Virus record (IMG/VR): IMGVR_UViG_3300030372_004711
Span: 1 to 27,413 of that record
Source: a virus
Taxonomy: Duplodnaviria > Caudoviricetes
DNA: 27,413 nucleotides
Direction: 5' to 3' (one strand)
The notes below the pieces were generated by a model. The model was given only the letters and a program-made list of their open reading frames with translations, ran no database searches and was not told the origin of the DNA. Position numbers and translations under genes: made by a program. Every line of letters starts with the position of its first letter. Position 1 is the first letter of the stretch. Positions 5,490 to 22,986 of the stretch are shown here, in pieces.

Positions 5490-6104
5490 TCACAAGATTT
5501 GACGCGATTCGCGGAACGGCGCAAGGATCTCAGCGACTTCTTTGGGCATCGTCTTTGGTGATATAGAGATTGTTGCCGCGCGCTGTGTAATACTGTCTTT
5601 TCCTTGTGTCGCTTTGTTTCGATGCAGCTGGCTAGCCCATACACAGATCCCGTGCTCAAGATCTGCAGGCAATTGGTTATTTGCATAACCAGCCTCACAA
5701 ACCACTTTGATTGCACGATAACCACGCTCAAAGGTGTCTGTTGCAATAATCGGATCAAGGATAACTTGTCCAAGGTATTTATCAAGAGAATACGTTGTTG
5801 CATCGATCAACGTATCCGCGTTGTATTGCCGATCAACATCACTGTGTATGGATGCAACGCTTTGAATCGGTCTCATTGGTAGCTGTAAAACTTGCGGGTT
5901 TTCATGTGTTGGCCCGTCAAGAAAAAAGGTGTGCGTTGCGGAAAGCATGCGAGGTGACGCAAGATTATCGCTCTTGCGCCACCCCATATAGCGAGCGGTT
6001 GCGGCCTCCACGCGATCAAGCAGTGCCTCAAGGTCAGTATTGGCGGCATCGCCTGTGACCTCGGGCAAGTATTGCTTGAGCGTGGAAACCGTAACCATTG
6101 CCAT
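5490..6104 (-). CDS. Head-tail adaptor (HK97 gp6/SPP1 gp15-like, long form)
   Basis: VTVSTLKQYL...ATARYMG at N-terminus, AGY...LPADLEHGI, and MPKEVAEILAPFR at C-terminus. Confidence 0.85.
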   Translation of the reverse strand: MAMVTVSTLKQYLPEVTGDAANTDLEALLDRVEAATARYMGWRKSDNLASPRMLSATHTFFLDGPTHENPQVLQLPMRPIQSVASIHSDVDRQYNADTLIDATTYSLDKYLGQVILDPIIATDTFERGYRAIKVVCEAGYANNQLPADLEHGICVWASQLHRNKATQGKDSITQRAATISISPKTMPKEVAEILAPFRESRQIL

Positions 6105-8947: not shown

Positions 8948-8975
8948 TTTACATTTCTTATGATTATATTATAAT
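8948..8975 (+). promoter_or_regulatory. Sigma70-like promoter with overlapping palindromic operator
   Basis: TTTACA-16 nt-TATAAT after an A-rich tract; ATGATTATATTATAAT at 8960-8975. Confidence 0.7.
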
Positions 8976-9017
8976 GAGTAATATAAACAACAACACAAAC
9001 AAAAAGAGGACAACAAA

Positions 9018-9275
9018 ATGAACCAAGACAACCTTATTACAAAACTTGAAAAAATGGGCTTTGAATTTTTCGATGAGTGTGACGATGGAGTTTGGGAAAT
9101 GACAATTTGCAACGGCAAACAGTCATACACCATCAACAGATGCATGGTCTATCAGCACGGAACCGGAATCACAAAAAAGATCGAATGGTACGAAACTGGA
9201 CTGCAGTGGATTATCGATATGGAAACAATGACAACAACCAAGCCCGCACAAGCGGGCACAACCCCCAACCAATAG
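9018..9275 (+). CDS. Hypothetical protein
   Basis: 85 aa, AGAGGA RBS, first gene after promoter; 3' end reads through repeat copy 1. Confidence 0.75.
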   Translation: MNQDNLITKLEKMGFEFFDECDDGVWEMTICNGKQSYTINRCMVYQHGTGITKKIEWYETGLQWIIDMETMTTTKPAQAGTTPNQ

Positions 9276-9288
9276 GACAACAACAATG
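9235..9288 (+). repeat. Hairpin-leader repeat, copy 1
   Basis: CAACCAAGCCCGCACAAGCGGGCACAACCCCCAACCAATAGGACAACAACAATG; stem GCCCGC/GCGGGC. Confidence 0.9.
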
Positions 9289-9444
9289 TACTACAATGAA
9301 TACCTGTACAAGAAATTACAAGAAATGCTTGATCAGCTTGACGCTTTGATCGAGCAATCGAACATCGACAACACGCACCAAGATGATCTCAATGAGATCT
9401 ATACCAAGATCGATCTTCTTCTCGAGAAGATCGAAAACAAGTAA
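9286..9444 (+). CDS. Small acidic helical hypothetical protein (52 aa)
   Basis: Hand-translated MYYNEYLYKKLQEMLDQLDALIEQ...KIENK; AGGA RBS; fills the gap between the two repeats exactly. Confidence 0.8.
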   Translation: MYYNEYLYKKLQEMLDQLDALIEQSNIDNTHQDDLNEIYTKIDLLLEKIENK

Positions 9445-9445
9445 C

Positions 9446-9498
9446 CAACCAAGCCCGCACAAGCGGGCATAACCCACAACCATAGGACAACAACAATG
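9446..9498 (+). repeat. Hairpin-leader repeat, copy 2
   Basis: CAACCAAGCCCGCACAAGCGGGCATAACCCACAACCATAGGACAACAACAATG; differs from copy 1 by 2 substitutions and 1 indel. Confidence 0.9.
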
Positions 9499-9792
9499 AA
9501 AACAATACTTATAGAATGGAAAAGCGGATTACGCCAAGTACACACCGACACAACAGAGAACCTTCTTGATCTCTTGGTTATGGAGATCGATCACATCGAG
9601 GAAGTGGAATACGTTGAACATATCGATAAAAGAAACGAAGTGAAAGTCATCAGAGACAGGCTAGGCCTCACACAACAACAATTTGCTGATAAGATTGGGG
9701 TTGCTCGTGAAACGGTTAGCAAGTGGGAAAACCACCATTTTATCATCTCAGAAGAGAACCAACAAAAGATCGAGGAACTGATCAATGCTTGA
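9496..9792 (+). CDS. XRE/Cro-C1 family HTH regulator
   Basis: C-terminal VKVIRDRLGLTQQQFADKIGVARETVSKWEN. Confidence 0.9.
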   Translation: MKTILIEWKSGLRQVHTDTTENLLDLLVMEIDHIEEVEYVEHIDKRNEVKVIRDRLGLTQQQFADKIGVARETVSKWENHHFIISEENQQKIEELINA

Positions 9793-10021
9793 CATACTCG
9801 CATCATTCGCACAAAACGAGTTCCGCACATTGCTGCACGTGCTTTGCTCAATACTCGCAACCGGCACATATTATTATTTCTTTTGCATCATCATAGGAGA
9901 TCCCATGCAACCAAAGCTCAACGAAAGAACAGTACGAAAGCTTATCGCTAGATTTGGCCGTAAAAGTACAGAAAAATATTTACAACAATACGGAAAAACG
10001 ATAAGCAATTATGAAAGATAA
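9785..10021 (+). CDS. Hypothetical protein (may instead start at internal MQPKL)
   Basis: Overlaps the HTH stop; hydrophobic N-half, basic C-half; internal AGGAG RBS before MQPKL. Confidence 0.55.
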   Translation: MLDILASFAQNEFRTLLHVLCSILATGTYYYFFCIIIGDPMQPKLNERTVRKLIARFGRKSTEKYLQQYGKTISNYER

Positions 10022-10033
10022 TTTTTCCTTGTG

Positions 10034-10069
10034 CCCGCTCTTCAACTGACTTGCAAGAGCGGGTTTTTT
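10034..10069 (+). terminator. Rho-independent terminator
   Basis: CCCGCTCTT...AAGAGCGGG followed by T6. Confidence 0.8.
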
Positions 10070-10089
10070 ATTTTCTTTGGATATGCAAA

Positions 10090-10782
10090 ATGAGACTAAG
10101 GCCTTTTTTTTCGTATTATGGAAGCAAATGGACGATTATTGACAAATACCCGAAACCAAACACGGATACGATCATAGAGCCTTTTGCCGGATCTGCACAA
10201 TATGCAACAAGATACCCATCAAAAAAAGTAATCTTATACGATCTTGATGAAAACATATATCAGATATGGAAATACTTAATATGTGTAAGTGAAAAAGAAA
10301 TAATGGGCATGGATTTAAATTTTGACCACATACAAGAATCAAGGCTCACGCAAGAACAAAAAATACTTGTTGGATTTTGGATCGCGCAAGGCGGTGCATC
10401 TCCCGCAAAGACAAGAACAAAAAGATCTATTGAAAACGGGATTCTGTGGAAAGAAAGAACATGCTGTCAACTGCAATATATAAGACATTGGGAGATCTAC
10501 AATACATCTTACGAGCAAATAGAGGATCATCATGCAACATGGTTTATTGATCCCCCATATCAAAACAAAGGGTATTGTTACAAAAAATCAAGTAAGCACA
10601 TAAACTATCCTCGCCTCTCTCAATGGTGTAAGGAAAGAAAAAAAGAATACATAGTCTGTGAAAATAATGGAGCTGATTGGATGCAATTTAAGGATCTATG
10701 TAGCCTTAAAAATATGAGGAATGCACAAACAAGAGAGGTTTATTGCACAAACATAATGGATAGACAATTGTATTTATGGTGA
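10090..10782 (+). CDS. DNA adenine methyltransferase, Dam/D12 (alpha) class
   Basis: FSYYGSKW, IEPFAGSA (SAM binding), YDLDE, FIDPPY (catalytic); start moved to ATG 10090. Confidence 0.88.
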   Translation: MRLRPFFSYYGSKWTIIDKYPKPNTDTIIEPFAGSAQYATRYPSKKVILYDLDENIYQIWKYLICVSEKEIMGMDLNFDHIQESRLTQEQKILVGFWIAQGGASPAKTRTKRSIENGILWKERTCCQLQYIRHWEIYNTSYEQIEDHHATWFIDPPYQNKGYCYKKSSKHINYPRLSQWCKERKKEYIVCENNGADWMQFKDLCSLKNMRNAQTREVYCTNIMDRQLYLW

Positions 10783-11298: not shown

Positions 11299-14200
11299 TC
11301 AATCCTCCACAACCGCGATGATTGTACAGCGGCAATTTATATCCTCAGAAGCCTCACCAAATGCGGCGGGGCTTGGACCGGCGGCGCCCGTTGATCTTAC
11401 AACAAAATCCTCATTGACCCCAACCGTTTGACCGTCAAGTTCCGCATGTGTTTCTCGTACCTTGTCATCACGAGAAGATAACCATTCTTTGCGGATGTTG
11501 ATACCATTCGCGGCGGCGGTTTGATATGCCTGATCGGTTGCCATGTTCACAGCTTTTGTGCTTTCCGTTCGTGCAATGGTGCGCGATCTCTTGATGCCAA
11601 ACTTTGCATCACTCTTGATCTTGCCCGCAATCTCATCAACCGAATCACCTTCCAACAACCCATCCTCAACAATCTTTTTGATTTTGTCGGCGGTGGTTTG
11701 TGCAATCCTCATGGATGCACTATCGATAGCCTGCACAGCGGCGGTGCGTGAGCCAAAGACAAGATCAAGCGGTTTCGATTCTCCGGCCATCGCATACACA
11801 TCATCGAGCGCGTCCGTGCCCGATAAAGTCCACACTGATTCCCATGATCGACCCAAAGACCGTTGCAGCTCAAAGACTTCATCCGCAAAACCGATCAATT
11901 GTTGCCAATCGGTGACCGCCTTGATGATGTGATTGGATCCGCTTGTTTTGCGCTGCGTTATGTACGCCTCAACGCGTTCCACGTATCTCTTTTGTGCGTC
12001 ACGTAGATAAGCATATACAGCGCGCTGAATTTGCTGTTCTGCGGGCCTTTGTCTCTTCTCTAACCAATCATTCCAAAGAGCGGTGCGCTGCTCGCTTTTT
12101 TGTAGCCTCTTCTTTTCCTCCTCAATCAACTCTTTCATGTGGGTTTGCCCGCGCTCACCAACAACAAACCACTTGATTTGCGCAACCGTTCCCGCCAACC
12201 TAAAATCCTGCAAGTGACGTGCGGCCCATGCTTCTCTCTTACGGATCGCCATCTCCTCAGTATCGGTCTTTGGTGTTTTGTCTTGCCTGCTTACGATAGG
12301 CTCCAATCGTCGATACTGGTTATTGCCCTCGATGTTTCCGCCTCTTCTCCATATTTGCGGCCAATTTTCTTTCAAGTCTTTTGCATACTCAGCATCAAAA
12401 ACCCGATACTGTGTATTTGCAAGCGACACCTCTTTATCATCGCCGCGCGTTGGAAAGTTTGTTACGTCGCTGTTTTTCTCTTCGGGTTCCTCCCATGATG
12501 CAAGCGGTGCGGCCTCACCAAATCGATCGTACAGTTCTTTGATCTGTTCATACAACCGCTCTTTGTCTCTTTGCGTTGCTCCCGAAAGATTATAATAACC
12601 CGTGCCAAACTTAGGCTCACCACGTACAGAAGATCCCGCAGCAATCACGCCACGGAAAACGATCTTGAGTTCACCATTGATCATTTTGGCGATGGGCAAA
12701 CGATAGGCATTTGGCTCATCGGTTCCACCACGATTGACAAAGAGAAAGGCCTTCTTGTACAGGTCCATATCCTGATCATCACCAAGGATCTTTTGTGCCT
12801 CTCTTTTTGTAAAGCCCCAATCTTGATCCTTTGCGGCAAGCGGCAAATCTTTCCAACCATAGATCAGGTGCTTTTGCTCCTTCTCCTCTTCCGCATTGGA
12901 TAGCGGGTGATCTTTTGGCAAGAGGTCTGTATCATATGGGGATCGTCGATACTTGCCGGTGCGCAATGCATATAAGAGGCCATTGACGCGACCCATACTC
13001 CATTGGTTTGCGGATCCTACGCTGGGTCTAACTGAGGCAGGGTTTGAATAGTACGCGGCCAACCCACGATGATACGATGTTGCAAGATAGTTTACGTTTG
13101 TCAGTCTCTTCTTTGGGTTGTCGCCGTATTCCTCGTTGTGTTCTTTACCCTTTTTTTTTAAGGATTTTTGGGTTGCCTCACTCAAGGCATCCATTGCCTC
13201 TTTTGCGTTGCTCTTCAATCCATAATTTGTTTCCTGCTTTTGGATGGTCTTGAGTAGGATTTGCATGGCGCGCACGTTTTGGCCTTCCTCATCACCAACA
13301 TCTTGTGCCGGTGTTTCGCGCTCATCTTGTGGAATGATTGGTGCATCTTCCATACCCTCGAACTGATAAGCCTCAGCGGGATCCATGCCATTGAGGATAT
13401 GCTTGGTGATCCGATCTAGCTGTGCATTGCGTATATCCTGCAACGCCTCAACACCTGAGTAATCAATCTCAACGCGTAGATCCTTATCAAACCGCCTGGC
13501 AATCTGTGTGAGGATGTGTCCAATTCTCTTGCCGCGCTTGGTTTGTACTTCCCAATAGTTTTGCGCTTGTTGCCTTGATACCGCAAAGTTTGCACTGTTA
13601 TCACCAAGTACGGAAGGAGGAACACCAAAGACCGCGCTGATCGCTTGGCGGGTATAGTCTCGCACCGCTTGGAATTCAAGATCGCGCGGGGATACCTGTA
13701 AAGGCTCTATTTTTACTTGTCCACTCAGCACCATTGCACCGCCCTCACCACTCATGCCTTTGTACGCATCGAGGATGGCGCGCCTTTGCTCATAATCCCA
13801 TATATCAGCTTCATCAGCGGGCGATATGAGTATATCTGGCCGGCCTTTCTTTGCGGCATCACTTGCAAGCTTTTGCGCGCTAATATCTGCGCTTATTTCT
13901 CTTTGCAATGGTTGGATACCTCCAAGACCATACAACGCATTGACACCATCACCCCACGATGCCAATTGCGTATATACAACACGATCAACGGGATACTCAA
14001 CAACGTTGCCGGAATCCTCAAACTCAAAGCCTTTGATCCCGATTATTGGATCGGTCACGATCTTGGTTTGCTCTGGATGCAATCGGAAGACCGAAGCGGG
14101 CACATCTGTTGATCCGGCAAGAAGTGCATAACATCCACCGGTCAGCATGAGATCGACAACCAATTGCTCGCGAAAAGAGAAGCCATCAACATATGTGCTT

Positions 14201-14508
14201 GGTTGCTCCATGAGATCAAGAAACGGGTGTTCTTCGATAATTTGCGACCGCTCACCTTTGCCTTTAATAAGCTTGATTGGAAGTGCCGCAAGATCTTGTG
14301 ATGCTCTTGATACAGCGGCATACACATATGAATGAGAAGCAAACGCAGCCATTGAGATCTTTGCCGGATATGGATTCCTTGCGCCTTGTGCGCGCTCCCA
14401 ATCCGCACCATGTGCAGGCCTTTCAGGTTTATCCACTTGCTTTGCAAATGCCTTGGTTATACGTTGCCAAAATGTCAGTGGTTTTGCGGGCAAATCTTTA
14501 CTCATCAT
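11299..14508 (-). CDS. Portal protein (HK97 family) fused to internal domains and C-terminal MuF head morphogenesis domain
   Basis: N-terminal VYAAVSRASQDLAALP and ISAVFGVPPSVLG (portal); C-terminal RTIARTES, KEWLSSRDDKVRETH and INCRC (MuF); single 1069-aa ORF. Confidence 0.92.
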   Translation of the reverse strand: MMSKDLPAKPLTFWQRITKAFAKQVDKPERPAHGADWERAQGARNPYPAKISMAAFASHSYVYAAVSRASQDLAALPIKLIKGKGERSQIIEEHPFLDLMEQPSTYVDGFSFREQLVVDLMLTGGCYALLAGSTDVPASVFRLHPEQTKIVTDPIIGIKGFEFEDSGNVVEYPVDRVVYTQLASWGDGVNALYGLGGIQPLQREISADISAQKLASDAAKKGRPDILISPADEADIWDYEQRRAILDAYKGMSGEGGAMVLSGQVKIEPLQVSPRDLEFQAVRDYTRQAISAVFGVPPSVLGDNSANFAVSRQQAQNYWEVQTKRGKRIGHILTQIARRFDKDLRVEIDYSGVEALQDIRNAQLDRITKHILNGMDPAEAYQFEGMEDAPIIPQDERETPAQDVGDEEGQNVRAMQILLKTIQKQETNYGLKSNAKEAMDALSEATQKSLKKKGKEHNEEYGDNPKKRLTNVNYLATSYHRGLAAYYSNPASVRPSVGSANQWSMGRVNGLLYALRTGKYRRSPYDTDLLPKDHPLSNAEEEKEQKHLIYGWKDLPLAAKDQDWGFTKREAQKILGDDQDMDLYKKAFLFVNRGGTDEPNAYRLPIAKMINGELKIVFRGVIAAGSSVRGEPKFGTGYYNLSGATQRDKERLYEQIKELYDRFGEAAPLASWEEPEEKNSDVTNFPTRGDDKEVSLANTQYRVFDAEYAKDLKENWPQIWRRGGNIEGNNQYRRLEPIVSRQDKTPKTDTEEMAIRKREAWAARHLQDFRLAGTVAQIKWFVVGERGQTHMKELIEEEKKRLQKSEQRTALWNDWLEKRQRPAEQQIQRAVYAYLRDAQKRYVERVEAYITQRKTSGSNHIIKAVTDWQQLIGFADEVFELQRSLGRSWESVWTLSGTDALDDVYAMAGESKPLDLVFGSRTAAVQAIDSASMRIAQTTADKIKKIVEDGLLEGDSVDEIAGKIKSDAKFGIKRSRTIARTESTKAVNMATDQAYQTAAANGINIRKEWLSSRDDKVRETHAELDGQTVGVNEDFVVRSTGAAGPSPAAFGEASEDINCRCTIIAVVED

Positions 14509-14553: not shown

Positions 14554-14584
14554 AAATACAACAATGGCCGCATTGCGCGGCCAT
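14554..14584 (-). terminator. Probable terminator hairpin after the 14604 gene
   Basis: ATGGCCGC-GCAAT-GCGGCCAT then a weak U-rich tail. Confidence 0.5.
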
Positions 14585-14603: not shown

Positions 14604-14921
14604 TTATCGTGATAGTTGATCTCTGATCATTTGCTTAAAGCCTTGTGGCGTAAGGTCATACCCTTTTCTTTTTAGCTCTTTCTTGATGTGAGGTTGAATG
14701 TATCCGGTTTCCTCAACGATTTGCAAAGGAGCAAGGCCGGTGCTTTCTTTTGCAAAGTAATCCTCAGCTGTCCAGTTTTTGCGAAGGTGGGTCATAAATG
14801 TTGCGATCGATCCTTTTTGGTACTTGAATCTTGCAACGATCTTTCGATCTGTGTTTTCGCCTTGTTGGAAGATGATAAGATTGCCTTGTCTTGTTAGATT
14901 TTGCTTTGTAAATGGTGTCAT
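14604..14921 (-). CDS. Hypothetical protein
   Basis: 105 aa with its own promoter, GAGG RBS and downstream hairpin. Confidence 0.8.
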   Translation of the reverse strand: MTPFTKQNLTRQGNLIIFQQGENTDRKIVARFKYQKGSIATFMTHLRKNWTAEDYFAKESTGLAPLQIVEETGYIQPHIKKELKRKGYDLTPQGFKQMIRDQLSR

Positions 14922-14952
14922 GTTGACCTCGTTTGTTGTTGGTTACTTAGTT

Positions 14953-14981
14953 AGTATAGGATGATTATAATATAATGTCAA
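14953..14981 (-). promoter_or_regulatory. Sigma70-like promoter with operator in spacer
   Basis: TTGACA-17 nt-TATACT; plus-strand ATGATTATAATATAAT at 14961-14976. Confidence 0.85.
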
Positions 14982-15018
14982 TGGCTCAATCAAAAATAAA
15001 TAAAAAAAGATTGGTTTT

Positions 15019-15300
15019 TTACAACCAATCACCGTTTACCTTGCATGCAGTGATGCCAAACCATGCACCGAACAGATCAACAACGTCAAAAATATCGTTG
15101 TCAAAGTCCTCATATTCGGGCATGGTAAGAATGAAGTAACAAATATCATCATCATCAAAGAAGGATACTGTGTTCTTTGTTTTGTACTCTTGTTTGTTAA
15201 ATACTTCCGATTCATTCAGCTCCGATAGGATCGCATCAATGTCGCGATCCTCGAGGATAAAATTTCTTTTGCATTTTATGTTGTTTTTTCTTGTTGTCAT
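15019..15300 (-). CDS. Acidic hypothetical protein
   Basis: 93 aa with its own promoter and GAGG RBS. Confidence 0.8.
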   Translation of the reverse strand: MTTRKNNIKCKRNFILEDRDIDAILSELNESEVFNKQEYKTKNTVSFFDDDDICYFILTMPEYEDFDNDIFDVVDLFGAWFGITACKVNGDWL

Positions 15301-15331
15301 GTTGACCTCGATTGTTGTTGGTTACCTTCTT

Positions 15332-16064: not shown

Positions 16065-17513
16065 TCAAGATCTGTGCTTCTTGAATCTGTACAAAAAAGC
16101 AATCTCGTATCGCAACGCATCCAACCCATGATCGTGTTGTTTATCCGGTTTGTCTCTTCCTTTTGTCTTGCTCCATTTGTACTTACGAAACTCTTTGATC
16201 AACTCCTTGCATGATTGGAATACCATGAGCGCGGGCACGCCTTCCGCATTGAGCATCAACCGTTCTTTTACAAGATTGATTGTTTCGGATACGCCGTAAT
16301 GTTTTGGTGCAGGCTTGGTTTGCAATCCCAACTCACGAGCCAACAACAACCGGCCGTCCTTACTCTCTGGATCCGCAACAATCCAACGGAGATCGGGATC
16401 CTTTGCGCCAAGCGCAATGATCATGCGGCCATTTTCGAGAGTTGTTTTTTCGGTCTTGTAATACTCTCGATATACATACAAACAATCATTGTCTTGATCG
16501 TGTGCTATCCACAATGCCGCAAATGGGTTGCGTACACCAAAATCGATCGCGATGTCACGCGGCCAATGATCAGGAATCACAAACGGTTTGACCACATGCA
16601 CGGCCCGATCGAACTCTGGATACACCAACCCGCTTTGACTGGTAAACATACCAAAAAGGCGCGCGTTCTGGCTTGCCTCACTGAGGTGTGAAACGGCCCG
16701 CTTGAGCTTGTTGCTCGATATGTACGGGTTATCCAATCCACTCAAAGCATAACGATTGAATCCGCTTGGCGGGTTGTCCACAAAAAAGTCATACAAAAAA
16801 GACAAACCTTTGAGCGGTGTTGCTGTGATCAAGATCTTGCCTTTGGTATCCACAACGCGTAGCATACACTCTTCAAAAACCTCAACGCTTGGCTCTTCAT
16901 CAAGCCATACAAATTTCACTGATGCGCCTTGGAATTTTTCGCGGCCTGCTTCCACCGATAGTGATACGATTCGCCCACCATTGGGCAACCTCATTGAGGC
17001 ACGATCTTGTGCGCGCCATCTTGTATATTTTGTACCGCTTGGTGCGTATTGCTCAAGCTTTGGTCTTCCATACTCGAGTGCATCACCATAAGATAGCGCG
17101 GCATACCATACCGTTTGCGGCTTGCGCTGGATAAGATCTTTTGGTAGGTTGTTGATCTGTAACCATTCTTGCACATACCACTCATCACGACCGGCAGCGA
17201 TCGCAACGGCCAACTGCGCACCAAACTGCGTTTTGCCCGCACGGTTTCCACCGGTACACAAAAAAGCCTCATCGGTTGCAGTAAATCGAATTGCGGCTTC
17301 TCTTTGTGAGGTTCTTTTTTCCTCGATACCACATTGATCGCAACGATACACACCCAAACCGACCATATCCATTGCATTCCCACAACCGCGCGCTCTTTCG
17401 CTTTCCTTGCCTTTCCCGTCCCATCTATGACAATAAGGCACCCACAACCGCGACACCGCAAGAGGATAACTCTTGACGATGTTGATCAACTGGTTGCGGG
17501 CCTTGTATTGCAT
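16065..17513 (-). CDS. terL: Terminase large subunit
   Basis: Walker A GGNRAGKT, Walker B FVWLDEEP, TATP coupling motif, nuclease AIDFG and DHGLDALRY; start moved to TAATG-coupled ATG 17513. Confidence 0.95.
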   Translation of the reverse strand: MQYKARNQLINIVKSYPLAVSRLWVPYCHRWDGKGKESERARGCGNAMDMVGLGVYRCDQCGIEEKRTSQREAAIRFTATDEAFLCTGGNRAGKTQFGAQLAVAIAAGRDEWYVQEWLQINNLPKDLIQRKPQTVWYAALSYGDALEYGRPKLEQYAPSGTKYTRWRAQDRASMRLPNGGRIVSLSVEAGREKFQGASVKFVWLDEEPSVEVFEECMLRVVDTKGKILITATPLKGLSFLYDFFVDNPPSGFNRYALSGLDNPYISSNKLKRAVSHLSEASQNARLFGMFTSQSGLVYPEFDRAVHVVKPFVIPDHWPRDIAIDFGVRNPFAALWIAHDQDNDCLYVYREYYKTEKTTLENGRMIIALGAKDPDLRWIVADPESKDGRLLLARELGLQTKPAPKHYGVSETINLVKERLMLNAEGVPALMVFQSCKELIKEFRKYKWSKTKGRDKPDKQHDHGLDALRYEIAFLYRFKKHRS

Positions 17514-18229
17514 TACTGTTGCGCTCTTACATATGCGTCTTGTAGCGTAGCAACAACCGGCACACCATGCACAGTGATGTGATCGCACTCGATGGTCTGT
17601 ACAACCGGCATGCCTTTTTGCTTGATGGTTATTTTGATGGGCATTGCCTTTGTTGCGCTCATGGTGATAAACGTTGCCTCATCACCGGCATGTACAAGTG
17701 CAACCGGATCCGAAACACCATAGCCGGATAATGCTTCTTTGATGGGGTCCACAACATGTGCCATGCCGCCCGCATATCGGTTATCTAGCTCACGATCAAG
17801 TTTCAGTTTTTGCGCTCTTGCAATGAGTTTGGATAGCTCATCATTGGATAGTTCTTCGATGTTATCGCCAAAAAGAGACGGTTGATCGTTTTGCGTTTGG
17901 TACGTTGCGTATTGTGGACGGATCGCAACCTCCACATGATGATCCTTATGCCACAAGACAAAACGATTGCGCTTGTGCAGTTTCTTGAGATACGGGTGTT
18001 GCAGCCAATTGTGATACTGCCGATCAGCAAAACCAACCGCACCTTTTTCCGCAAGCGCATATGCCGCGCTGTAATATGCACCGCTTGTACTTTCGTAGTG
18101 TTCGAGGATGTCAATCATGGTGACGATCTTATCATTGTTTTGCTTTAGATACTGCAATATTTTTGCTTCTTTTGCCGGTGATGGGTTTGCGCGCAGTGCT
18201 AATTTTTCTTTGATTTTCTTTGTGAGCAT
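17513..18229 (-). CDS. Hypothetical protein between terS and terL
   Basis: 238 aa, AAGGAG RBS with CAA-rich leader. Confidence 0.8.
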   Translation of the reverse strand: MLTKKIKEKLALRANPSPAKEAKILQYLKQNNDKIVTMIDILEHYESTSGAYYSAAYALAEKGAVGFADRQYHNWLQHPYLKKLHKRNRFVLWHKDHHVEVAIRPQYATYQTQNDQPSLFGDNIEELSNDELSKLIARAQKLKLDRELDNRYAGGMAHVVDPIKEALSGYGVSDPVALVHAGDEATFITMSATKAMPIKITIKQKGMPVVQTIECDHITVHGVPVVATLQDAYVRAQQ

Positions 18230-18249
18230 GTTGTCTCCTTTGGTTGTTG

Positions 18250-18678
18250 TTAGTCCTCATCAAGATCGATGATTGGTTTTTCGATGATGGGTGCAATCTC
18301 TTTTCTGTACTCGCTGATCAGCTGTTGCACGTCAACCGATTCAGCATCAATCGTAATTTGTACGGGTGGCGGGCCGTCTCTCGAATACCCGAATCTTCTT
18401 TCAAGTAGCCATGCAGCGGCTTGCCAATTACCCTCACGTGCTTCTTTGTTTATGACCGCAAGAGATCCAACACACGCCATGCTTTCCGCTCTTTTGAATT
18501 CGTTCAAAAATGTTCGATATATTCCTTTATTTTGCTCCTCACCTTTGCGCATCCAGTAAAACAATGTTGTCCTTGATATGCCCGCAAAGTTTGCCGCGAT
18601 CTCATATGTGGATCCCGCCTGTATCGCTTGCAAGATCTTGCGCTGTACTTCCGCATTGAGTTTGGTACGTCTAGCCAT
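18250..18678 (-). CDS. terS: Terminase small subunit
   Basis: N-terminal HTH (YEIAANFAGISRTTLFYW), WQAAAWLLERR motif; upstream of terL. Confidence 0.8.
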   Translation of the reverse strand: MARRTKLNAEVQRKILQAIQAGSTYEIAANFAGISRTTLFYWMRKGEEQNKGIYRTFLNEFKRAESMACVGSLAVINKEAREGNWQAAAWLLERRFGYSRDGPPPVQITIDAESVDVQQLISEYRKEIAPIIEKPIIDLDED

Positions 18679-19855
18679 CAAGACCATCCCCAACATCATG
18701 ATTGTTTTCTTTGGCGTATTTGTACCATCTTTTGCGTATTACATCGCAGTAAGATCTCTCTATTTCAAAGCCAATGCATTTTTTCTTTATATGGGCGCAA
18801 GCAATTAAAGTTGTTCCACTCCCAAGATAAAAGTCTGCAATTACATTATGTTTTGAAAAATAATCATTGATAATTTGTGCAATCAATCCGACCGGTTTTT
18901 GTGTCGGATGAACTCTTTTACCTTCTAATTTTCTATCCCCCTTTTTTAATGCACCCATCCACATGTATCTATATATTTTCAGAGGACAATCATTAATAGT
19001 CCATGCTAATTCTGCATCGGAAAAATTATCATCCCAATCTTTTTCTTTCTTATCCCAGACAATCCATCCTTTCGTATCCTTTAGCTTTGAGCTATAGTAA
19101 TTTGCACCCCATAATATGCTGTTGGGTATTATTTCCAATAGTTCAGTAGGATCAAAAGGCTGATCGTCTTCATAGATTGGTTTATATTTATTTGCTTTAA
19201 CAATTCCACTACCTCCTATTGATCCATTACCTCCTATTGATCCATTTTTTACTACACTTATACCGTATGGCGGATCATGAATACCTGCCTCTGGATGCAA
19301 TCTTAAAAAAGCAGATTGTCTTAAAGTTTCGTCTCTCCAATCTCCGCAGACCAGAATATGATTCCCAAGTTCGTACACCTCACCCAATTTGCTTATTGGA
19401 TCGTCATCGCAAACCTCAATCACCTCATCTTCTTGGCCATCAAATACAGGCTCAAAAAGATTATCGAGGTCTGATGAATTCCAACCAAGATCCTCCATGT
19501 CTTCCGCACTCAGTGCAAGATCATTGATAATGCGATCTAGCTCATTATTATCCCAATCCGCAATCTCACCAATCTTATTGTCCGCAAGTGCGAGCATTTT
19601 TGCATCAGCGGGATCAAGATCAAGGTATCGCACAGGAACCGCATCAAGTCCCAGTTGTTTTGCCGCTTTAAGGCGCGTGTGGCCAGCAATAACCATCTTG
19701 TCCTCTCTTCTTGCTACGATGGGCGCACCAAAACCAAAACGCTTGATACTGTTGGCAACCTTATCCACTGAATGATCATTCAATCTTGGGTTTTGATCCC
19801 AAGGCACAAGGTTATCGATGCTTTCCCATACGGCCGCAACCTCTTCTTTTTTCAT
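18671..19855 (-). CDS. ParB N-terminal domain fused to N6/N4 DNA methyltransferase (beta class)
   Basis: NPR, SIKRFGFGAPIV, IAGHTRLKAA and LADNK (ParB); DPPY, HPTQKPV and DFYLGSGTT (MTase). Confidence 0.92.
   Translation of the reverse strand: MKKEEVAAVWESIDNLVPWDQNPRLNDHSVDKVANSIKRFGFGAPIVARREDKMVIAGHTRLKAAKQLGLDAVPVRYLDLDPADAKMLALADNKIGEIADWDNNELDRIINDLALSAEDMEDLGWNSSDLDNLFEPVFDGQEDEVIEVCDDDPISKLGEVYELGNHILVCGDWRDETLRQSAFLRLHPEAGIHDPPYGISVVKNGSIGGNGSIGGSGIVKANKYKPIYEDDQPFDPTELLEIIPNSILWGANYYSSKLKDTKGWIVWDKKEKDWDDNFSDAELAWTINDCPLKIYRYMWMGALKKGDRKLEGKRVHPTQKPVGLIAQIINDYFSKHNVIADFYLGSGTTLIACAHIKKKCIGFEIERSYCDVIRKRWYKYAKENNHDVGDGLDG
19211..19246. repeat. Perfect in-frame 18-bp tandem duplication
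   Basis: ACCTCCTATTGATCCATT x2, encoding NGSIGG-NGSIGG after DPPY. Confidence 0.9.
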
Positions 19856-20497: not shown

Positions 20498-20727
20498 TAC
20501 TCACCTCCTGCAAAGTATGCGGCCATTGCCTCAAGCTCTTGATCACTCATGTCTTGGTTTTGGGCTTGCGCTTGCTCATCAAACTCAATGCCCAAAATAA
20601 TAAAGCCGTTGTCAATCCATTGTGCGATCGCCTTTGCAAGATATACAGGATCATCGGTGTTGATGCTGTCAGTGATTACCTGATCAGTATTTGTGTTTTG
20701 AAATGTTATGTGGATCCAATTTTCCAT
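20497..20727 (-). CDS. Acidic hypothetical protein
   Basis: Start moved to ATG 20727 (MENWIH) with AGAGGA RBS. Confidence 0.75.
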   Translation of the reverse strand: MENWIHITFQNTNTDQVITDSINTDDPVYLAKAIAQWIDNGFIILGIEFDEQAQAQNQDMSDQELEAMAAYFAGGE

Positions 20728-20776
20728 GTCGTCCTCTTTTTGTTTGGGGTTGTTGTTGTGTATACATACTAATAAC

Positions 20777-20792
20777 ATGATTATACTATGAT
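20777..20792. promoter_or_regulatory. Degenerate copy of shared operator
   Basis: ATGATTATACTATGAT in the intergenic region upstream of the 20727 gene. Confidence 0.6.
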
Positions 20793-20795
20793 GTC

Positions 20796-21239
20796 TCACA
20801 AAATGGAGACTTTGCTAATTTTTTTTCTTTGCAGTCCTTTGGAGGATCTGATCATAATCTCCTCATGTGTGGAAGTGTTACCGCTTATGACCTTGACAAA
20901 CCATTTTCCGTTTTGCTTGACCCATCGACCCAAAGGCTGATCCGGCGTTGGTACCTCATATGAGTTTATTGTGATTGTCTCATTGCGGCACTGTGTGCAT
21001 TTATAAACAAAAATGTTTCTTTCCTCGGTTTGATTGTACCAAAACTCAAAATGGCTTCCACCGCATTTGCATTTATGATTTACAATCGCATCAACACCAA
21101 CCCATACGCCGTTTTCCTTCTTTGCCGCAACGTATCTTTGTTGGTGTGTATTTGGTCTCATACCCAAGCGCATATAGCGCGCGTATTCTCTGTTATAGCC
21201 TTTTTCGGTGTAGGTGCTTTGCAAGTAAACTGTCTTCAT
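20796..21239 (-). CDS. Hypothetical protein with Zn-ribbon-like motif
   Basis: 147 aa; CKC...CTQC; own promoter and AAGGA RBS. Confidence 0.75.
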   Translation of the reverse strand: MKTVYLQSTYTEKGYNREYARYMRLGMRPNTHQQRYVAAKKENGVWVGVDAIVNHKCKCGGSHFEFWYNQTEERNIFVYKCTQCRNETITINSYEVPTPDQPLGRWVKQNGKWFVKVISGNTSTHEEIMIRSSKGLQRKKISKVSIL

Positions 21240-21271
21240 TTTTGCTGTCCTTTGTTGTTGGTTACTCTAGT

Positions 21272-21301
21272 ATTATACACATGATTATATTATATTGTCA
21301 A
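21272..21301 (-). promoter_or_regulatory. Sigma70-like promoter with operator in spacer
   Basis: TTGACA-18 nt-TATAAT with TGTG before -10; plus-strand ATGATTATATTATATT at 21281-21296. Confidence 0.85.
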
Positions 21302-21321
21302 AAAAATAATCAAAAATAAAT

Positions 21322-21381
21322 AAAAAAGAGCGGAACACGGGAGAGGACAACATAACAACAACAACCAGATCCCGTGCCCGC
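21322..21381 (-). ncRNA. Terminator-like stem-loop with 27-nt loop antisense to early-gene RBS; candidate regulatory RNA
   Basis: GCGGGCACGGGA-[UCUGGUUGUUGUUGUUAUGUUGUCCUC]-UCCCGUGUUCCGC-UCUUUUUU; structure seen in sequence, RNA function inferred. Confidence 0.5.
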
Positions 21382-21387
21382 AAATTT

Positions 21388-21567
21388 TTACGGGTGCGAA
21401 TAATCCGCAATCATCCGCTTGATATACCTCTCTAATAAGCTATCTGCATCCATTTGGTGACGCTTGGCAATGAGGACAAGTTGATCATACTGCTCCTTAC
21501 TCAAGGTGATCCGTACTCGTGTGTCAGCTGACTTTTTATCTGTTTTGTACTCATACTTTTTTGGCAT
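21388..21567 (-). CDS. Small ribbon-helix-helix-like DNA-binding protein (59 aa)
   Basis: Hand-translated MPKKYEYKTDKKSADTRVRITLSKEQYDQLVLIAKRHQMDADSLLERYIKRMIADYSHP; AAGGA RBS. Confidence 0.7.
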   Translation of the reverse strand: MPKKYEYKTDKKSADTRVRITLSKEQYDQLVLIAKRHQMDADSLLERYIKRMIADYSHP

Positions 21568-21835
21568 CGGTAATCCTTTTTACTAGGTCATTTATATCAT
21601 ATTTTGGTAACGATTCAAAAATATCGTCAAGGCTGTCAGGTTTTGTCTCCCAACGCTTTTTCGTTTCTTCGGATGGCCTGAGGTCTGCAATCAATACTTG
21701 TGCATGCTCTTTGCCTTTGATGGGTACCGCAAATCGAACATGTGCAATCTTGCCTTGTAGCTTTTCGATGTGTGCAAAGACACTCAACCAAGATCCTTGC
21801 ATTTTGAAAATGCATGTGTCTCCAATCTCATACAT
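21551..21835 (-). CDS. Hypothetical protein
   Basis: 94 aa, overlaps both neighbours. Confidence 0.7.
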   Translation of the reverse strand: MYEIGDTCIFKMQGSWLSVFAHIEKLQGKIAHVRFAVPIKGKEHAQVLIADLRPSEETKKRWETKPDSLDDIFESLPKYDINDLVKRITDAKKV

Positions 21836-22898
21836 TGTACTTACTCCCCAAACTTACGTATATGTCAATCAAGGCATCAAAGATCTCAAGGTCATCGTGT
21901 CGCTTGATCTCTTGTTGCATATCAGGTGTGATTCTTCCATCATCAACCATTTCCACAATCTCTTTCTCAATTGCCTGATAATCCATGTTGTGACGCTTGC
22001 ACAATGCACCCCAAAGACCTCTAACACCGCCTTGATGCGCCAATGCCAGTGCTTGCGACCTCTCAACGCTTTTGATGGCTTCTTGACTTTCCTTTTCTGC
22101 GCTTGCATAATCAATCGTAAGCACAGATCTTGTATATCTTGCTTCTTTCGATTTCGATAATTTGCCAGTTGGCTCTCTTCCGATCCATGTTCTGAGGCCC
22201 TGCACCCACCCACGGCCGCGAAAGAGCTTATGCTTTTTTCCATCACGGATAAAAATATCAAGACTTTTACAACCGCGCTCAACAGCAATAATGCTGTATC
22301 CCTCTTTGATTGTCTCGATGTCTGCAATCATGTCGTTGGTGTTCCAACCCAACGACGTTGCATACTGTGACAAAAGAGATTCGATCCACAAGTTCCTTTT
22401 GTCCACCTCAAAAGATTTTGAGATTTCTTGTACATTGCTTTTTCTCTCTTTCTTTTTATCTATTTCTTTTTTATTTTTCTTATCTCTATTTAGGAGGATC
22501 ACTTTTTCCTCATCCATAGGATCACTTTTTCCGGTAGGGAGGTTCACTTTTTCCTCATGTACAGGTTCACTTTTTCCTCTTGGCATTTCAAAGAGGATCA
22601 CTTTTTCCTCATACTCCTCAACCTCAACAGATCCATTCTTGTATGTGTTTGTGGATCTCTTGTCAGCATCAACAATCAAAAGACCGTGATCCCTAAGTTG
22701 CGCAATCGCGTTGCGCACCGTTCTTGGTGTCATGTCAAGATTGTCCGCGATCGTTTGCTGTGATGGCCAGCACTCGATCTTGTCACCGATCATGTAAAAT
22801 TGTAGCTCAAGATATACATATACGGCAGCGCGTGAGATTCCTTTTTGGCGCATCGCCTTGAGTTGCTGCCTGTGCAGCTGTACAAATAGTTTGTCCAT
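21828..22898 (-). CDS. Replication initiator-like protein with N-terminal winged HTH
   Basis: CWPSQQTIADNLDMTPRTVRNAIAQL...STNTY, internal iterons, Lys-rich linker. Confidence 0.8.
   Translation of the reverse strand: MDKLFVQLHRQQLKAMRQKGISRAAVYVYLELQFYMIGDKIECWPSQQTIADNLDMTPRTVRNAIAQLRDHGLLIVDADKRSTNTYKNGSVEVEEYEEKVILFEMPRGKSEPVHEEKVNLPTGKSDPMDEEKVILLNRDKKNKKEIDKKKERKSNVQEISKSFEVDKRNLWIESLLSQYATSLGWNTNDMIADIETIKEGYSIIAVERGCKSLDIFIRDGKKHKLFRGRGWVQGLRTWIGREPTGKLSKSKEARYTRSVLTIDYASAEKESQEAIKSVERSQALALAHQGGVRGLWGALCKRHNMDYQAIEKEIVEMVDDGRITPDMQQEIKRHDDLEIFDALIDIYVSLGSKYNV
22438..22608. repeat. Putative replication origin: five iterons plus AT-rich tract
   Basis: AGG(A/T)TCACTTTTTCC at 22495, 22518, 22540, 22563 and 22594; T-rich tract 22438-22491. 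Confidence 0.8.
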
Positions 22899-22986
22899 TT
22901 TTTATCCTCGTTGTTGGTTGTGTTGTGTTGTATATATACAATAACCGAATACACAAATATTGTACAACATTTTTTATGGATCTTGC

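Follow-up and report, generated by a model that had tools for sequence, protein, structure and literature searches.

Control of translation by antisense and small RNAs (sRNAs) is well known, and the phage RNAs that regulate classes of the phage's own genes are few, namely P1 C4, P4 CI, P22 sar and lambda OOP. Here we describe a terminator hairpin with an oversized, G/U-rich loop at positions 21322-21381 on the minus strand of the virus record IMGVR_UViG_3300030372_004711, which was analysed over its entire length of 27,413 bases (45% G+C) and is referred to below as the window. Several described systems come close to this element. C/A-rich or ACA motifs enhance translation and are silenced by the G/U-rich sRNA GcvB (PMC3879156), and sRNAs derived from 3′ untranslated regions exist, including one in phage PhiKZ and DapZ at dapB (PMC9438474). 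In phages P1 and P7, the C4 RNA is made from the strand of its targets and presents in its loops the complement of ribosome-binding regions (PMC12197685). In phage T4, the start regions of e, soc, 49 and I-TevI are sequestered on read-through (early) RNA by a sequence lying upstream of a late promoter, and the endoribonuclease RegB and the repressor RegA are phage factors that inactivate a class of mRNAs via a common motif in the start region (PMC3014915). As judged from sequence comparison, the loop described here is a genuine and conserved antisense match to the Shine-Dalgarno (SD) sequence and AUG of phage genes that carry a C/A-rich leader. Our favoured reading, to which we assign a probability of about 0.45, is that the loop belongs to an anti-leader RNA that acts in trans and blocks the translation of this leader-bearing class.

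The element resembles GcvB (region R1) and DapZ of enterobacteria, the latter with a G/U-rich, GcvB-like seed, in that a G/U-rich antisense sequence faces the C/A-rich (ACA/CAA) leaders next to the SD of multiple targets. Such an accessible G/U-rich seed was found in silico, and its best sites genome-wide were start regions with a C/A-rich leader. Like DapZ, the element occupies the 3′ end of a protein-coding operon and is itself closed by an intrinsic terminator, and like the PhiKZ RNA it is the 3′ end of a phage transcript with a proposed sRNA role, PhiKZ being an unrelated phage (PMC9438474). It differs from GcvB and DapZ in that Rfam searches revealed no homology in sequence or structure (GcvB gave no match), in that a phage encodes it against genes of its own, and in that the seed sits inside an oversized terminator loop in most lineages and covers both SD and AUG, not an upstream enhancer only. 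An earlier note on this DNA, made from the letters alone, had likened the hairpin to P1 C4 and the P4 CI antisense RNA. The functional half of this analogy held, since complementarity to ribosome-binding regions is presented by a loop in silico; kinship did not, as no Rfam match to the C4/CI family was obtained and the element follows the last gene of an operon instead of being processed from an operon leader. Moreover, there is one large loop here, not two short ones, and the predicted targets are many dispersed genes, not one antirepressor operon. The lineage-specific pairing described below recalls P1/P7 heteroimmunity (PMC12197685). A description of a terminator-loop anti-leader in phages was not found in the open-access literature.

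As the earlier note had proposed, the hairpin stands at the 3′ end of the replication (Rep/RHH) operon, Rep being O-like by PHROG. The last gene of this operon encodes a ribbon-helix-helix (RHH)-like protein and stops at a TAA (21390-21388); the next six bases are AAATTT, after which sequence and fold confirmed a hairpin with a U tract and a 27-nt loop. The stem consists of 12 pairs, nine of them G-C and one G-U, with one bulged U, and is followed by UCUUUUUU. The predicted fold had a free energy of -24.8 kcal/mol (z = -3.9), none of 200 shuffles was as stable, and the loop was essentially open. With a G+C-rich stem that runs directly into a U tract, and with its place behind the last gene of the Rep operon and ahead of a promoter, the element has the form of an intrinsic terminator that closes a transcription unit. 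The loop departs from the short loops of ordinary terminators (3-8 nt in the scan definition), as it measures 27 nt here and 20-28 nt in relatives, and because of this length the consensus terminator scan missed the site. The T-rich stretch of the U tract continues into an A/T-rich region upstream of the next promoter. Since a perfect promoter sequence comes after it (21301-21272), the hairpin appears to end the Rep operon, with the next unit beginning directly behind. Two open reading frames (ORFs), 21285-21410 on the minus strand and 5559-5733 in the related contig L028, traverse the U tract and the promoter, and their frame is not conserved. Searching the whole window with Rfam 15 at the gathering threshold gave no match, and the sole match in 21150-21650 at E values up to 10 was a chance one to snoU54 on the other strand.

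Among the start regions of 39 ORFs in the window, a C/A-rich leader recurs, roughly UAACCAACAACAA followed by (G)AGGACAACA and then AUG. It precedes the genes starting at 22898 (Rep), 21239, 20727, 18229, 15300 and 14921, and on the plus strand those starting at 9018, 9286 and 9496, whereas it is missing from the packaging and structural genes, whose SDs are ordinary. CAA-rich words were nearly all found in sense orientation at such leaders, and the hairpin loop was their lone intergenic antisense copy. The loop was then scored with RNAduplex against the 39 start regions (-30 to +20; energies in kcal/mol here and below). The top eight were all genes with a C/A-rich leader, at -27.6 to -19.6 (Table 1), against a median of -12.3 for the 39 and a range of -8.1 to -18.6 for the starts of 14 packaging and structural genes. 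The seven pairing counts put forward in the earlier note, ungapped and with G-U allowed, were all reproduced (Table 1). The start region of Rep itself is a possible self-target, and the gene starting at 9018 could be reached only in trans because it lies on the opposite strand. It had been argued beforehand that the idea would fall if the loop paired no better than shuffled controls or than with the ribosome-binding sites of late genes. The latter were clearly beaten and the shuffles modestly so: in 500 dinucleotide shuffles of the loop, the energy sum of the top eight was reached 7 times and the number of sites with -19 or lower 25 times; one mononucleotide shuffle out of 500 reached that sum, and the best single site was matched in 16 of 500. 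At the 21239 start, the adjacent one here, the energy of -17.4 was matched by 111 of 300 shuffles and is not significant. C/A-rich leaders pair with any G/U-rich sequence, and the case from the window by itself is suggestive, no more.

Relatives were collected by anchoring on the alignment of the RHH-like protein, with identities from 100% down to 53%; the Rep protein as a query gave one close relative only. The set comprised 16 loci from metagenomes, 10 from viral contigs (several being the same contigs with more flank) and one contig from a metagenome-assembled genome (MAG), analysed as stretches of ±2.5 kb or ±10 kb, and the related contigs are of marine metagenome origin. In every locus that extends beyond the RHH stop codon (L014 ends there), a G/U-rich stretch lies beside a U-tract terminator, with a promoter-like region and then a C/A-rich leader behind it. 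This stretch forms a 20-28-nt hairpin loop with a U tract in all loci but L021, where UUGUUGUUUGUUAGG is placed between a first hairpin and a short-loop terminator, single-stranded and directly 5′ of the terminator hairpin as in GcvB and DapZ. The loop types distinguished were A (UCUGGUUGUUGUUGUUAUGUUGUCCUC, with a variant A2 that has one U inserted), B (UUUGUUGUUGUCAUUUGUUCUUUGU, with a variant Bp in which GUCGAU replaces GUCAUU), C (UGUCGUUGUUGUUUUGUCCUU) and D (UUUGUUGUUGUCUUGUCCUUG), the last of which recurs with one extra U as a D-like loop in L034. Their G+U content is 81-88% and they are unpaired in the minimum free energy (MFE) folds, fully so in lineages B, C and D; the hairpins of the relatives had z scores of -5.1 to -6.9. 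The G/U-rich large-loop terminator occurs only once per contig. A loose motif, GTTGTTGT-N1-8-TTGTCCTY, is common in viral contigs (about 1400 stretches estimated); among the 120 motif loci listed, none had a stem of at least 7 bp with a U tract and two had weak stems without a U tract; the motif alone is not diagnostic. No second family of the same architecture was found among these 120.

The stem covaries: both sides have changed at 6 of 11 pairs, 92.7% of the cells are paired, as compared with 34-51% in slid controls, and the covariation score was reached by 0 of 500 shuffles. The loop is retained down to 53% RHH identity, as the proposal in the earlier note required, and is more conserved than third codon positions of the RHH gene, with mean pairwise identities of 0.941 versus 0.688 in lineage A (9 loci), 0.949 versus 0.816 in lineage B (6 loci) and 0.685 versus 0.534 across all lineages (12 loci). 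These data also bear on a functionless origin, already considered in the earlier note, in which the loop would be the relic of a plus-strand gene leader (ATG to ATA) caught between the terminator arms. The reverse complement of the loop, GAGGACAACATAACAACAACAACCAGA, does resemble the SD, start and first codons of gene 15300 (M-T-T-R). However, a decaying relic is ruled out because the loop is better conserved than synonymous sites and is kept within a covarying stem; the ATG/ATA position varies (AATAAC in A2, ATG in B, TCG in Bp, ACG in C and none in D), the loop lengths differ by non-multiples of three, and the promoter scan found no plus-strand promoter at the hairpin. We therefore regard this origin as scarcely credible.

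Whether the loop fits the leaders of its own lineage was assessed with a leader class defined independently of the loop, namely an ATG at the head of 40 or more codons, preceded by 30 bases of which at least 75% are A or C, together with an SD-like triplet, which gave 6-10 members per contig in six lineages. The z scores of the own loop against the own class were -2.3, -1.4, -2.2, -2.7, -3.8 and -1.6 relative to dinucleotide shuffles, and the observed value was reached by 3, 29, 5, 0, 0 and 25 of 300 shuffles, respectively, so that two of the six lineages (29 and 25 of 300) are not significant against the whole leader set. The matrix of own versus cross pairings, in mean energies over whole sets, was not clean, as the long loops of lineage A were best on most sets and the loop of lineage D was worst on its own. 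That two lineages fall short of significance would fit a loop kept as a site for an RNA-binding protein (Hfq-like, S1 or a phage protein) or as a tuner of the terminator, with complementarity as a by-product of G/U richness: shuffled G/U-rich loops already pair fairly well (means of -13 to -16, versus -16 to -21 observed), and the excess in the window is modest. This explanation seems improbable to us, however, in view of the order-specific matches to SD and AUG at 7 of 11 adjacent starts, where 0-2 of 300 shuffles did as well, and of the lineage-specific loop variants that fit lineage-specific leaders, with an anti-SD part that follows the SD type. As far as predicted energies go, clear lineage matching came only from this analysis of adjacent targets.

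In the adjacent-target analysis, the start region next downstream of the hairpin paired with its own loop at -24.4 to -28.0 in the said 7 of 11 representative loci. The predicted duplexes cover about -16 to +15 around the AUG, and thus the SD and the start codon, and take up nearly the whole loop; for 6 of the 11 targets the own loop was the best of six loop types. Weak adjacent matches were obtained in the window (-17.4), L009 (-16.8), L029 (-19.5) and L026 (-21.0). The MENWIH... gene (start 20727), which is the first gene behind the promoter in L025, L026 and L012, is separated from the promoter in the window by a 147-aa gene (20796-21239, minus strand) with a shorter C/A-rich leader of its own. 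The 147-aa protein had no relatives in the viral-contig collection, and its gene looks like a moron-type insertion, which would account for the poor adjacent match in the window. Over 14 loci, the energies of own loops with adjacent targets beat all 20000 permutations, in a test that takes the loci as independent despite shared ancestry, there being effectively some 4-6 lineages. In lineage A, loops ending in CCUC occur together with GAGGAC leaders, and in lineages B-D, loops with CCUU or UUCUUUGU occur together with AAAGGAC or AAAGAGC leaders; the anti-SD part of the loop shifts with the SD type of the lineage. A conserved, covarying terminator at the end of the operon, a conserved and open G/U-rich loop and a lineage-matched complementarity to SD and AUG are what was observed directly. 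Such a conserved and apparently co-varying pair of loop and leader in uncultured marine phages was unexpected.

Matching extends to start regions far from the hairpin. In L027, the GUCGAU loop of Bp reaches -31.2 with a CAGUCGACAAUG start region at a distance of 5.8 kb (this best L027 target starts at 11394, with the contig ending 100 nt further), and the loop of lineage D fits three GGACAAUGACAAUGAC start regions. When whole contigs were scanned on both strands, the best non-self sites were sense-strand start regions (the top five in L028, the top five in L031 and the top three in L033); the scan of the window was noisier than those of the relatives. A distant start region equalled or beat the adjacent one in 6 of 9 contigs, and the adjacent one ranked top among start regions in 3 of 9. 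In the identity-based alignments, transitions that remain G-U compatible on the sense RNA outnumbered those of the A-C type by 38 to 23 (p = 0.036, with non-independent rows and 76 transversions in the same alignments), a weak but correctly signed hint of pairing at the RNA level. A feature of the DNA has also to be weighed here, either an inverted repeat around an invertible promoter or operators in loop and leader for one DNA-binding protein such as the RHH-like one. The loop and the adjacent start indeed make an imperfect inverted repeat of about 20 bp that flanks the promoter, and an RHH-like regulator (a weak match) is encoded next door. Nevertheless, the orientation of the promoter relative to the RHH gene is constant in every locus reaching that far, and no recombinase family, as an inverton would call for, was found among the 39 scanned ORFs of the window. 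Stem covariation and the U tract point to an RNA terminator, and both the lean of the mismatches toward G-U pairs on the sense RNA and the coverage of SD and AUG concern RNA-level signals, which makes a DNA-level feature very improbable.

The closest competitor, and a serious one, follows the logic of T4 e, soc, 49 and I-TevI, in which silencing is confined to cis. Rep-operon RNA that leaks through the terminator would fold back on the first downstream SD and AUG, and RNA from the internal promoter, which lacks the loop, would be translated. The order anti-start loop, U tract, promoter, C/A-rich leader with SD and AUG is invariant in all lineages, so that in each of them a complement of SD and AUG lies upstream of an internal (predicted) promoter, with a loop-to-AUG spacing of 108-150 nt (270 nt in L029). 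As in T4 gene e, only transcripts from upstream would carry the inhibitory strand (PMC3014915). The strong adjacent matches fit this explanation, as do the contigs in which the adjacent start ranks first; in addition, when the read-through RNA was folded (nested MFE), the stem opened in 6 of 8 loci and 16-23 bases of the loop paired with the adjacent start, an opening that would account for complementarity along the whole loop. On the other hand, the adjacent match is poor or ordinary in the window, L009, L029 and L026, where distant ones are better, and a non-adjacent start is as good or better in the 6 of 9 contigs mentioned. The closed-stem state lies within 0-6.5 kcal/mol of the open one (L031 was set aside, as its stem-enforced energy equalled the MFE, perhaps because the constraint did not take hold). 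Given this and the earlier formation of the terminator stem, rearrangement is not assured. Because the intervening promoter is a full sigma-70 consensus, read-through would contribute a minor share of downstream mRNA, and little would seem to be gained by silencing it, except in a phase when the promoter itself is repressed. A purely cis-acting complement, moreover, has no need of a terminator loop. The geometry also departs from that of T4 gene e in that the complement is 108-150 nt away and locked in a stable terminator hairpin, the promoter is of host sigma-70 consensus type and not late, and several distant starts are fitted as well. Overall, we consider a mechanism acting solely in cis to be rather unlikely. 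Leader RNAs might also cause antitermination by pairing with the loop as it is transcribed, but this seems kinetically unlikely and was discounted.

According to the favoured reading of a trans-acting anti-leader RNA, Rep-operon transcripts would end at the hairpin, and their 3′-terminal hairpin, either still joined to the mRNA or as a stable product of its decay, would accumulate as the replication operon is expressed. The loop would then pair in trans with several leader-bearing mRNAs, including those from the opposite strand or kilobases away, using about 10-13 bp per target. Pairing would cover the C/A-rich leader, the SD and the AUG of promoter-proximal non-structural genes and block 30S binding, and the outcome would be translational repression of the leader-bearing class, as feedback or as shut-off. 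Where transcription runs through the terminator, the loop would in addition occlude, in cis, the start region next downstream; the trans and cis modes could coexist. We favour trans action because distant starts match as well or better in 6 of 9 contigs, because the best partners in the window are a gene at a distance of 6 kb (15300) and one on the opposite strand (9018), and because L021 shows the classical layout of seed and terminator. It is also favoured because the use of a G/U-rich seed against the C/A-rich enhancers of many mRNAs has an established precedent in GcvB (PMC3879156). Of the multi-target anti-ribosome-binding-site RNA that the earlier note had envisaged, the conserved antisense match to an SD/AUG class stood, and the short RNA, its action in trans, the early timing of the class and its shut-off stay conjectural.

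A number of points weigh against trans action. The excess over shuffles is modest in the window and insignificant in two of six lineages; the permutation test draws on few effective lineages; and the G-U bias is weak. The entire case is one of computation on sequences, and of the sequencing runs listed for 20700-22900, none is recorded as RNA. From helix geometry, a duplex of 19-25 bp should be impossible in a closed loop of 21-27 nt, so a closed hairpin would use only part of its loop per target and pairing over the full length would need stem opening. In well-studied Hfq-dependent sRNAs, the seed is usually single-stranded and 5′ of the terminator, not in the loop. With one anti-leader per Rep transcript, the RNA would have to outnumber mRNAs from several consensus promoters unless it is far more stable than they are. 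Finally, the adjacent downstream start is the best or near-best match in most relatives, which fits cis action equally.

Trans action may be taken further, to a two-class translation code in marine phages of about 30 kb. Non-structural genes would be tagged by a shared cassette of C/A-rich leader, SD and AUG behind repeated consensus promoters, and one anti-leader loop would shut the whole leader class off in trans as replication starts, as an RNA counterpart of T4 RegB and RegA, which are proteins. With loop and leaders co-evolving in each lineage, the pair could also set an immunity-like specificity between co-infecting relatives. We think this extension unlikely. If trans action is true, a small phage marks a gene set by a common C/A-rich leader and controls all of it with one RNA loop of 20-28 nt. 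The leader cassette and the anti-leader hairpin would then form a compact and portable pair, testable with reporters because the promoters are of sigma-70 consensus. The loci, from marine phages that are uncultured, would provide a natural series of co-varying loop/leader pairs in which the evolution of RNA-RNA specificity could be followed. If silencing in cis is the true explanation, the principle of T4 gene e would be extended to an unrelated phage group in a terminator-embedded form.

Table 1. Positions of the terminator hairpin, its neighbours and the predicted target start regions in the window (energies are RNAduplex values for the loop in kcal/mol; fractions are paired positions)
Feature	Positions	Strand	Basis or remarks
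Stem 5′ arm, GCGGGCACGGGA	21370..21381	-	Sequence and fold; compensatory changes in relatives
27-nt G/U-rich loop, TCTGGTTGTTGTTGTTATGTTGTCCTC = UCUGGUUGUUGUUGUUAUGUUGUCCUC; putative anti-leader/anti-SD/anti-AUG element	21343..21369	-	Sequence, fold and pairing; kept in relatives
Stem 3′ arm, TCCCGTGTTCCGC = UCCCGUGUUCCGC, single bulged U	21330..21342	-	Sequence, fold and covariation
Terminator U tract (TCTTTTTTATTTATTTTT after the 3′ arm)	21311..21329	-	Sequence; U tract in every relative reaching that far
Predicted sigma-70 promoter, TTGACA-18-TATAAT (12/12)	21272..21301	-	Promoter scan; one copy of a cassette repeated in the phage group
RHH-like gene (59 aa) that closes the Rep operon	21388..21567	-	ORF list; weak Pfam RHH_7 match
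94-aa ORF of the Rep operon	21551-21835	-	ORF list
Rep, O-like replication initiator	21828-22898	-	PHROG replication-initiation matches
Leader/SD/AUG of gene 15019-15300	15281..15320	-	-27.6, best match in the window; 18/19
Leader/SD/AUG of gene 9018-9275	8988..9037	+	-26.0; 11/11; downstream of promoter 8948-8975
Leader/SD/AUG of gene 17513-18229	18209..18255	-	-23.6; 9/9
Leader/SD/AUG of gene 14604-14921	14903..14944	-	-21.9; 16/18; downstream of promoter 14981-14953
Leader/SD/AUG of the MENWIH... gene, start 20727, AGAGGACGACAUG	20725..20760	-	-21.4; 13/13
Leaders/SD/AUG of genes 9286-9444 and 9496-9792 (the latter a helix-turn-helix regulator), both AUAGGACAACAACAAUG	9256..9515	+	-19.6 and -19.9; 9/9 each
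C/A-rich leader/SD/AUG of the Rep gene	22879..22928	-	-19.6
C/A-rich leader, SD and AUG of gene 20796-21239, UAACCAACAACAAAGGACAGCAAAAAUG	21237..21264	-	-17.4, weak match; 9/9

PHROG and Pfam scans indicated a siphovirus-like phage, most genes of which are on the minus strand. These include the genes for the O-like Rep, the 94-aa ORF and the 59-aa RHH-like ORF, a run of small uncharacterised genes, a fusion of a ParB N-terminal domain with a DNA methylase, the small and large terminases, a portal/head-morphogenesis fusion, a protease, the capsid, connectors and tail genes. The match of the RHH-like protein to Pfam RHH_7 (E = 0.0052) scored 17.6 bits, under the 27-bit cut-off. No tRNA or tmRNA was found in the window. 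Since blastn of 20700-22000 gave no match in the GenBank phage collection and all tblastn matches of TerL were below 31% identity, the phage has no close cultured relative. The sole match in the species-genome collection was L034, a 5985-nt contig with the D-like module that is binned in a Candidatus Puniceispirillales (SAR116-clade) MAG, which may be a weak hint at the host or only a binned phage contig.

Several observations were made on the other genes of the window. A small plus-strand island (9018-10782) with a helix-turn-helix regulator and a methylase-like ORF lies inside the minus-strand late region. The ORF at the end of this island (10051-10782, plus strand) starts with TTG, and its match to the D12 adenine methylase profile is confined to the first ~65 profile positions; it may be a remnant or have a wrongly assigned start. 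The minus-strand gene 11299-14508 encodes a protein of 1069 aa with a portal domain (residues 13-460) and a C-terminal head-morphogenesis/minor-head domain like SPP1 gp7 or Mu F (793-1068), and is a fusion of two genes that are normally separate. The gene 18671-19855 (minus strand) joins a ParB N-terminal domain and an N6/N4 DNA methylase in one protein, with the small terminase gene immediately downstream.

Ordinary terminators with short loops were observed on the minus strand at 14564-14584, ahead of the portal gene, and at 15009-15030, ahead of the promoter cassette of gene 14921. The genome looks like a one-strand chain of terminator-promoter-leader units in which the G/U-rich large loop occurs only at the terminator of the Rep operon. 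The promoter cassette, consisting of a T-rich upstream stretch, TTGACA, 17-18 nt and TATAAT, is near-identical at 21272-21313 and 14953-14993 on the minus strand, at 8948-8975 on the plus strand and at 1501-1527 in both L005 and L007. A C/A-rich leader stands behind every copy, and relatives have these 27 bases at more sites; in L005 and L007 the cassette comes directly after a stop codon, without a hairpin. Cassette and leader together look like a modular unit for gene exchange. In one phage of the Bp lineage (L029, 6960-7110, and alike in L018), an A/T-rich insertion of ~150 nt separates the terminator from the promoter cassette and contains a possible hairpin, GTAAGATAGCAGAGATCTTAC.

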